64,000 nucleotides of DNA from Heptranchias perlo (lineage: Eukaryota), in NCBI RefSeq assembly GCF_035084215.1, contig NC_090346.1, forward strand, positions 9,672,001 to 9,736,000. Direction: 5' to 3'. Positions within the stretch are counted from its first letter, which is position 1. Each line of letters opens with the position of its first letter. Below are positions 39,756 to 42,212 of this stretch, piece by piece. The notes below the pieces were generated by a model. That model was not told the origin of the DNA. It saw only the letters and a list, made by a program, of their open reading frames with translations, and did not search any database. The position numbers and the translations under genes are program-made.

Positions 39756-41314
39756 GAAACCCCTCTGATAGTCATACCTGCTGCTTTGGAGTTCACTATT
39801 GCAATTAGGTCTCTTGGAGGAGTTTTTTTTTCCCCAAAAAGTGTGATTTACACTGTGTTCAACAGAAATTACCATACAATACAGCATTAGAATCTACAGT
39901 GACCGTTAATTGCAGCAATGGACATAAAGCACCGATGGAACAATTAAAAGATTTGAACAAGATGTTTTCAGGTAGTGCAGCAGCGTTTTAAAAAAAAGTG
40001 TGTATGTTAGCCACGTCACTGACAACAGTCACACCATGATCTAATACGGCAATACTCTATAAACATTTAATTCACAATATAACACTCTGGTCCATATATG
40101 CTTAGATTGCTTGGGATAATTACTAGTAAATGATAACTTTCCTATGTGTAGTCGTACACATAAAGGGCAGACTGCAGTTAGGCTTTTCTCGGATATCAAT
40201 GGTTTCAAGTCTGAAAAGTGGAAGCCTTCGATTCCTTTTAACCACACACACACTTTCTGTTCACTTTACAGTTACGGACATGAGGAAATGTCACTAATCT
40301 CAGAATCACATTGCCCTCTCTGGATCCAGCACAGCATTTTTAAGGAACCTTTTAAATAGGCAACATGCTGCAGTGATGTGTTAAGGTGGAATGACTGCAG
40401 ACTCTTAGGGTACCGTTGTAGAACATGTCTCGGGCAGATTCTGTATAGTGCAATGTGCAGTGGCAGACCAAGTTCTGCAAGATGGTGTATCATTATGGCT
40501 CAAATTCAGCTCAGTGACAAAGGAGCATGCTCAGAGCTGCACTCTGGTTTCTATATAACATGATGAGACAACAGGTGGGAGCAGTGACTCTCAAAATTAA
40601 AACGCATTTCCACAATGTGTTGGAATTATACCATACCCAGTGCAAAGTCCCAAGTGGTGTGAGACCACCTCCTGAAGTTGGTCTCGCTCCTCTTGATTTT
40701 TGTATGCTAAGAGGTTGCATGCACACTGCCAAGTTAATCTACTGCTCCTGTGTTGACACTCTTCCAAAATCGCTTTGCAATGGGGAAATACCAGTACGAT
40801 AGCACCAGAGTAGGGAATCCCACCAACTGTGTTTGATTGTCACTTTGTACAGTGATGAGTGCAAAGTGATAACACTTGTGTAAAGAGTGTTCAGTTTAAA
40901 AATCCATCAGTTTAGCTTCTTTAGGTAACTCAGGAGCAAAAACTACAGATCTGAAAATAAAATAACTACAGACTGTTAATTTGAACGGTTCCAATAAGGA
41001 AATGGTACAGAAATCTGAATGCATCATAGGACCTTGTTTCAATAGTAATGTGACAAAGTTACACAGCCTGTGTGGCAGGTGCACAGAAACAAAGGGGAAC
41101 AGCATGCTTACATTGGATATGGTCTTGAATTTCATCTTGCTATTGATTTTGGATGCCCTCTACAGAATGCAAAATATTTGCTGCTATCTGATTACAAAAG
41201 GTATTAAATTCACCCCAATGTCTAATTTCACGTAACAGAGACACTCTTCTTGTTTGGAGTCAGTATCGGTCACACGACAGTGAAAGAAACTGCTATACAA
41301 ATCTCATGTAAACG

Positions 41315-41434
41315 ATTGTAAACAATTTTACAACACCAAGTTATAGTCCAGCAATTTTATTGCTGGACTATAACTTGGTGTTGTAAAATTGTTTACAATT
41401 GTCAACCCCAGTCCATCACCGGCATCTCCACATC
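41315..41434 (+). mobile_element. Miniature Penelope-like fold-back insertion: 41-bp inverted arms plus 34-nt tail
   Basis: Arms 41315-41355 and 41359-41399, spacer ttt; tail 41401-41434; duplication tcatgtaaacgat at 41304-41316 and 41433-41445. Confidence 0.9.
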
Positions 41435-42212
41435 ATGTAAACGATGTCAATAGACAAGGTTGTAGAATTTCACAAAAAGCAGTTCAAAGATTTTAAAACA
41501 ACACAAACTTCAACAATTATTGCGAACGAAGACTAACTTTAAAAAAAGTTATCCCAAAAGATTGTCGAGTTTATGCACAAGTTTTACATGTGCATTTTGG
41601 GTGGGTATTTACTGTCCTGCATGAAGCAGATCAGTCACACAATTGAAAAAACTAACTGGGTTTTAAAAAAAACTACAGTATATTTGGCTAAAATTTAATT
41701 AAATCCATCTTTCTAATGTCACAAATCAATGTTTGTGGAGAAATAAATGTATGTGGTTACAATTTTCACTCCACATCTATAAGGGGCCAACAGAATGAGA
41801 ATGTATTGTATCAAGTGCATAGTGTTAGGTTACTGAGGTGACAAGATGGTGCTCACTATCAGAATATTTATAAGCACATGTCCAAAAAGTTTTTTCAAAT
41901 AAACCTACAGGTTTGATTAAAAATCTGAGCGTTATTAATAGTCCCAATACTGCCATTTTTGAAAGCAACCCAACATCTGATCAAGGGTGAACACTTGTTA
42001 AGTTTGCTTAACATCTGGTGAAACAAAATCAAAATGAGGGCTTTTCATTCAGGAAGAGGTTTGAGCATTTTCTCCCAACCCTGGGATCCACAGTACTGAC
42101 AAAAGGAAGTTACACACATACATCATGACTGGTTCCACAGCATTCTCCCAAACTCTGTATTTAATCTATTATGAGTCCACCAATTCTTGCAATTCTGAAT
42201 TGTATCTACAGT

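Follow-up and report, generated by a model that had tools for sequence, protein, structure and literature searches.

A perfect 41-bp hairpin in a predicted shark intron as an extremely truncated PLE insertion, with a candidate route to its formation

A small, perfect hairpin in a 64-kb stretch of Heptranchias perlo DNA (64,000 nucleotides, hereafter the window) is almost certainly a dead-on-arrival, extremely 5'-truncated insertion of a Penelope-like retroelement (PLE) with a C-terminal endonuclease, of the linker-bearing (Neptune/Nematis) type. It is a further truncated member of a class of insertions whose architecture has already been published. The copy consists of the last 41 nt of the element's pseudo-LTR (pLTR) and the PLE 'tail', without a direct pLTR or an ORF, and with 0 mismatches it is a clean and recent record of the PLE insertion reaction. 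With modest confidence, we favour an origin by twin priming from both of the family's start sites, followed by fold-back of the tail-less cDNA. The coordinates of all features are collected in Table 1.

Table 1. Features of the small hairpin, of its relatives in the window and of the host intron (positions within the window).
Feature	Position	Strand	Remarks
Small hairpin, left copy of the duplication	41304..41316	.	13 bp; final 2 nt common to the start of the tail-less arm
Small hairpin, tail-less inverted copy of the element 3' end	41315..41361	-	47-nt element match
Within the tail-less copy, left arm	41315..41355		41 bp, perfect
Within the tail-less copy, loop	41356..41358		TTT
Within the tail-less copy, junction overlap	41359..41361		3 nt
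Small hairpin, right arm	41359..41399	+	sense copy of the terminal 41 nt of the pLTR
Small hairpin, PLE 'tail'	41400..41436	+	37 nt; identical to 57770-57806; final 4 nt common to the duplication
Small hairpin, right copy of the duplication	41433..41445	.	13 bp
Tailed copy, not inverted	42821..42894	-	element 42828-42885; 10-bp duplication; within a LINE fragment
Tail-less copy, not inverted	29090..29226	+	element 29130-29219 (hammerhead core included); 12-bp duplication; 5' junction with 28 unexplained nt
Tail-less copy, not inverted, older (91% identity)	51147..51230	-	element 51154-51223; 9-bp duplication with one mismatch
Large copy	57760..59514	.	13-bp duplication 57760-57772 / 59502-59514; tail 57770-57806, on the left only
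Large copy, C-terminal remnant of the PLE ORF	58660..59160	+	mirror 58149-58649 (-); CX4CxxC linker, then GIY-YIG with two core cysteines
Large copy, 10-nt centre of the palindrome	58650..58659	.	not collinear with the element ORF (relatives: ..VRSKLPS)
Large copy, minimal hammerhead ribozyme motif (predicted) in the pLTR	59411..59452	+	C3 at 59417; mirror 57892 (-)
Inferred intron of an SMCR8-like gene, between its two coding exons	39214..44755	-	GT at 44755, AG at 39214

The arms of the small hairpin pair without a mismatch across the 3-nt loop. The predicted fold has an energy of -61.9 kcal/mol, a value reached by none of 200 shuffled sequences. The whole window contains five perfect inverted repeats (arms of at least 11 bp, loop of at most 10), and only the small hairpin and an 848-bp palindrome have arms longer than 12 bp. 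The three further perfect hairpins (10052-10085, 24460-24484 and 35553-35581) have arms of 11-12 bp and no strong match to the PLE end. The flanks of the small hairpin carry a 13-bp duplication; at least 13 nt were in common in 3 of 3000 random flank pairs of similar size. Six of the 13 duplicated bases overlap the element ends, namely AT at the tail-less end and TCAT at the tailed one. Because the duplication overlaps both ends, its unambiguous core is 7 bp and its true length lies between 7 and 13 bp. The two arms are asymmetric in origin, in that the tail-less arm follows the element for 47 nt, a match that crosses the loop and takes in 3 nt of the other arm.

The initial annotation described this locus as a 120-bp miniature of the large palindrome, and sequence comparison bore out the perfect 41-bp arms, the TTT loop, the one-sided tail and the 13-bp duplication, the last with the six ambiguous bases and the 7-bp core given above. 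The element-matching stretch is slightly longer than had been stated, at 122 nt (41315-41436). The tail is identical and one-sided, as proposed, but its length is 37 nt and not 34; 34 nt fits the large copy only after the duplication is subtracted, and the same subtraction gives 33 in the small copy. The proposed identity of family and architecture with the 1.7-kb copy was confirmed, as the tailed arm and tail of the small copy (41359-41436, 78 nt) match 57770-57847 with 0 mismatches. The tail-less arms also end at essentially the same position, as had been noticed: that of the small copy starts at the base equivalent to 57807, and that of the large copy reaches 57806.

The large copy identifies the element. 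Its arms (57806-58653 and 58656-59503) form a perfect 848-bp palindrome with 0 mismatches between them, and its ORF remnant contains a C-terminal endonuclease of GIY-YIG type that has cysteines within its core (CCHH type). The match of the remnant to the Pfam GIY-YIG family (PF01541; E 5e-4, score 20.6) lies below the curated cut-off of 22.6. A search of longer proteins with the remnant gave 40 relatives among 106 candidates. The top matches were shark proteins, and the best of them (P0001, annotated from Heptranchias perlo) shared 91% identity over 93% of the query. Five relatives, taken from the 40 for their precomputed reverse transcriptase (RT) domain, were scanned; all five passed the RVT_1 cut-off, and the same five carry DKG, YIDD, the linker and the C-terminal endonuclease. 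The relatives have the RT upstream of the endonuclease in one ORF. The large copy is truncated and lacks the RT, and no full-length family copy was found within the 64-kb window. One relative, P0010, had no match to solved structures at E 0.1.

The linker places the family. The window ORF carries a CX4CxxC linker, and the linker pattern occurred in 21 of 27 endonuclease-motif proteins (41 examined, the window ORF included). A zinc-finger-like linker, CX2-5CxxC, marks Neptune and Nematis and is missing in Penelope/Poseidon (PMC8557442). Our first reading, the Poseidon clade, was ruled out because the linker, absent from Penelope/Poseidon, is present. The linker is common to Neptune, Nematis and this family, which may belong to either of the two clades; these are told apart by their place in the RT tree and by a full or reduced linker. 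Neptune and Poseidon are described as the widespread PLE groups in vertebrates (bioRxiv 10.64898/2026.07.22.740005).

The pLTR also has the predicted ribozyme expected of a PLE. In the window, a motif scan found three hammerhead motifs whose helix II folds, and all three lie inside family copies. In the hammerhead core, which lies downstream of the ORF, helix II is preceded by an unpaired base and helix III is palindromic, both of which are features of PLE hammerheads (PMC4209133), and the two pLTR variants differ by a compensatory change in stem II of the hammerhead. A search of Rfam gave no match at threshold anywhere in the window, the hammerhead motif included.

Altogether, the window holds five copies of the family. 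Two of them are palindromes and three are plain stubs, of which one is tailed and two are tail-less. They range in size from 58 to 1734 nt, their inner boundaries differ, and each has its own duplication of 9-13 bp. The target of the tailed stub (42821-42894) is present once in a LINE paralog near 2780, which shows that the duplications were made on insertion. The 37-nt tail is found on three of the seven outer ends. All three tailed ends stop at the base equivalent to 57770, and all four tail-less ends fall at 57804-57807, so the outer boundaries are fixed, as had been proposed. Each type of end is also found alone, with its own duplication; as both tailed and tail-less stubs exist uninverted, the family has two fixed start points. 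Two further proposals fared less well. Fold-back at any truncation length is consistent with the two arm lengths seen, but these come from only two palindromes, of 41 and 848 bp. Nor does the family simply deposit hairpins: two of the five copies are inverted and the other three are not, and fold-back is therefore optional.

Contigs from 4 of 24 listed public sequencing runs were compared with the element. In two runs, X1 and X2, which represent one sample, possibly from the same source as this DNA and so not independent, 114 and 101 contig records ended at 57770 with unrelated flanks (flank agreement 0.36 and 0.35). A contig of another organism (X10) covered 57772-57875 with 0 differences. 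The tail-less boundary was absent among the loose ends listed (20 of 717), and there was no strand-change joint among the joints listed (15 of 46) when the arm of the large copy was used for comparison. The tail-less copy at 29090-29226 starts at the equivalent of 57893, and loose ends of 18 and 22 contigs fall there too. This boundary, immediately 5' of the hammerhead core, is recurrent and may represent either a subfamily difference or a truncation hot spot. The 28 nt between the duplication and the element in this copy (29102-29129) contain short internal repeats and occur nowhere else in the window; an 8-nt match between them and the tail was within chance, and was dropped as evidence.

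Outside the window, the exact pattern of pLTR end plus tail had 0 matches in metagenome, viral and prokaryote collections. Protein-based scans recovered three short loci (L001, L002 and L003). Two of them, L001 and L002, hold the pLTR end, and none of the three has an inverted copy. In L001 (985-1088) and L002 (885-975), which are metagenome contigs, the order is the same: the hammerhead comes first, then a conserved GGACT stem, and the complement of that stem stands at the pLTR end. L003 (NZ_MPRK01000347.1, 1304 nt) is a PLE RT-endonuclease fragment in a bacterial gill-symbiont assembly, and is probably contamination with host DNA.

The architecture of the small copy is close to that published for PLEs. 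At the 5' end these elements carry a 5'-truncated copy in inverted orientation, a tail of 30-40 bp is often present on just one of the two ends, and the origin of their inverted structures has been described as undefined (PMC8557442). Inverted pLTRs, an optional tail of 31 bp, duplications of 8-10 bp and palindromic inverted junctions have been reported and read as self-priming (PMC3846280), and the same traits are given for curators (PMC8969392). Like the small copy, canonical EN+ PLEs show 5' truncation, an adjacent inverted copy, a one-ended tail and a palindromic junction; they also carry a hammerhead in the pLTR and have variable duplications, of ~8-10 bp in rotifer examples (PMC8557442, PMC3846280). 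The small copy differs from them in retaining merely 41 nt of the pLTR, and in its near-equal arms and 3-nt loop. The targets of this family are AT-rich and not microsatellites, in contrast to the microsatellite bias hypothesised for Neptune (PMC8557442).

Two other systems bear on how such a copy could be made. The protein of PAc, a Poseidon element from the lizard Anolis carolinensis, nicks and extends both target strands in vitro, starts at two adjacent sites that delimit the tail, and is predicted to dimerize (PMC11167929). The PAc start lies 111-118 nt into an ORF beginning at helix II (PMC11167929). In our family the tailed end is 115 nt from the start of helix II of the hammerhead, and the pLTR end plus tail folds as a stem-loop (z -2.8), the outer stem of which recurs in the distant relatives L001 (z -3.1) and, weakly, L002 (z -1.2). 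PAc thus resembles this family in its two adjacent start sites bounding the tail, its stem-loop ~115 nt past helix II and its AT-rich targets (PMC11167929). It is unlike this family in belonging to Penelope/Poseidon and having no linker zinc finger. In its accessible text, the PAc study reports no homology between start site and cleaved DNA, in contrast to the 2-5 nt overlaps found here, leaves the later insertion steps unvalidated, and does not explain inverted copies (PMC11167929). For L1, twin priming and cDNA self-annealing are established ideas (PMC10760644, PMC11702581). LINE-1 twin priming resembles the origin we favour for the PLE palindromes here in that the second target end primes, the duplication is discrete and there is microhomology at the junction; in L1, however, the second primer anneals beside the first cDNA end, giving adjacent, non-overlapping pieces (PMC11702581, PMC10760644). 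Unlike in L1, the two arms here are copies of one and the same 3' end, and a poly(A) tail is lacking.

In the mechanism we favour, the GIY-YIG endonuclease would nick an AT-rich target on both strands, with ~7-13 nt between the nicks, and so expose 3' ends. The double nicking is extrapolated from the PAc enzyme in vitro, while the duplications themselves are observed. Each target 3' end would then prime reverse transcription, aided by a match of 2-5 nt. One end would start at the distal site, giving a tail, and the other at the proximal site, giving none, with both sites lying in the RNA stem-loop. The tail-less cDNA would abort after 47 nt, fold back by forming a 3-bp stem around a TTT loop, and copy itself, and the arms would be of equal length because of this self-copying. 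The new sense strand would anneal to the complementary tailed cDNA on the other target end and extend through the tail. Priming from a single end would leave a plain tailed or tail-less stub. The small hairpin would, on this mechanism, be a by-product of insertion. We are more tentative, at somewhat less than even confidence, about the general proposal that PLE insertions with an inverted copy and a one-sided tail arise when two internal start sites are used for coordinated twin priming and the tail-less cDNA specifically then folds back. A search of the PLE literature, the scope of which excluded most subscription papers (the PLE reviews of 2005 and 2006 among them), found no statement of a model combining twin priming with fold-back for PLEs.

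The evidence on mechanism comes from the junctions of two palindromes and five copies in one window. On the would-be priming strand, each of the seven primed ends shares 2-5 nt with its own duplication. The simulated chance of seven such overlaps out of seven is ~1e-4 to 1e-5 for AT-rich targets, under a null that cannot count chance extension beyond the tailed end. The overlaps may reflect a preference of the endonuclease for AT/ATT instead of pairing. The loop and junction of the small hairpin are templated by the tail-less arm, which ends in a sequence able to pair back. The 3-bp stem lends little weight to fold-back, because it is unstable alone (0 kcal/mol) and such a stem is offered at 9% of positions. 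In the large copy, the centre of the palindrome (58650-58659) contains an 8-nt re-copy of the adjacent element sequence. On the tail-less strand this centre reads as an 8-bp hairpin (-6.5 kcal/mol) with a second turn after it; alternatively, it reads from the tailed strand as a slip plus fold-back.

A single priming event, with self-priming on an antisense template or at the RNA level and a tail that is removed or kept by endonuclease resolution, is a less likely origin that we nonetheless take seriously. Its elements have precedents, since self-priming on an antisense template was proposed for palindromic junctions (PMC3846280) and endonuclease-mediated resolution for the tail (PMC8557442), and it predicts symmetric arms just as fold-back of one of two primed cDNAs does. 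However, the tail-less stubs at 29090-29226 and 51147-51230, with their own duplications, show the tail-less boundary in use without inversion, the limits of the tail correspond to reverse-transcription starts in vitro (PMC11167929), and both ends of each palindrome overlap the duplication.

It is improbable, in our view, that the small hairpin was once a longer inverted insertion whose centre was later deleted by slippage over the extruded hairpin at a 3-nt ATT repeat. Such a deletion would yield exactly the sequence of the small hairpin, and long perfect palindromes are known to be unstable. Yet the 848-bp palindrome nearby is intact, with no mismatch between its arms, and the same window contains non-inverted stubs of 58-90 nt, from which early abortion appears to be common.

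The symmetry of the palindromes speaks against a still less probable variant, in which twin priming takes place but the cDNAs are joined by ordinary microhomology end-joining without cis fold-back, as for 5'-inverted LINE-1. The 3-nt overlap at the junction of the small hairpin would suit end-joining, and L1 twin priming with discrete duplications and microhomology is documented (PMC11702581, PMC10760644). Both palindromes are nevertheless symmetric within ~10 nt, and 3-nt microhomology joins within 10 nt of symmetry make up 330 of the 11372 possible along the arm (2.9%), a count that covers the whole 844-nt arm, two very short cDNAs being near-symmetric more often. The 848-bp case would be hard to obtain by chance.

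Hairpins of this size invite comparison with two other kinds of sequence. A MITE has terminal inverted repeats at both termini, a duplication of fixed length and a homogeneous copy size, and a miRNA precursor yields precise small-RNA duplex reads from its hairpin. The likeness of the small copy to either is limited to its small size and hairpin shape; it is unlike them in its one-sided tail, its variable duplication and inner boundary, its retroelement origin and the lack of an Rfam match. A separate MITE-like or non-autonomous hairpin family with fixed 41-bp arms, amplifying as a unit, could account for a short inverted-repeat structure with a flanking duplication, but we regard it as very improbable. 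Only one copy in the window has 41-bp arms and the other four have different inner boundaries, the copies spanning 58-1734 nt; the sequence is identical to a retroelement 3' end; on one side there is a tail beyond the inverted repeat; and the duplications vary from 9 to 13 bp. A fold-back artefact of sequencing or assembly can be practically dismissed: such chimeras are a known library artefact and the comparison with public contigs used the large arm and not the small-hairpin locus, but the hairpin has unique sequence to either side, a 13-bp duplication and a tail on one side that recurs at a second locus, all of which go beyond what read fold-back would produce.

If twin priming with fold-back is correct, it would fill in a step that the PLE cycle has so far lacked and that could be read off tens of thousands of insertions in sharks, and the family would be a steady supply of perfect hairpins in host introns. 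The junction rules (the arm that templates the loop, overlap of the duplication at both ends, and a one-sided tail) are countable in good shark assemblies and would separate the models. Misfiling of such stubs as MITEs or hairpin RNAs is plausible. The literature search returned nothing on point for shark PLE palindromes, for MITE or miRNA mis-annotation of such stubs, or for details of the D. virilis tail.

The host context is that of a gene. Two ORFs match SMCR8 residues 1-794 and 784-937 and define a gene span of 38760-47205 (-). As the small hairpin lies between these SMCR8-like exons, it sits in the intron and should be transcribed as part of the pre-mRNA. The same intron also holds the LINE fragment that carries the tailed PLE stub.

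Pieces of the endonuclease occur in host proteins predicted for sharks, among them XRCC5, a cytochrome P450 and a septin (P0008, P0009, P0015, P0018 and P0027), with P0008 reaching 99% identity over 65% of the query. These may be gene-model artefacts derived from intronic copies, or real exonisation. Elsewhere in the window, an exon at 17055-17630 (-) matches Pfam Mito_morph_reg (E 6e-75), and we take it to be TMEM11-like. LINE RT fragments are present at 1-4800, 42200-44650 and 49200-53400, one of them matching RVT_1 with E 4e-30, and the LINE copies at 1.2-3.4 kb and 42.2-44.5 kb, which are inverted with respect to each other, share 91-98% identity.
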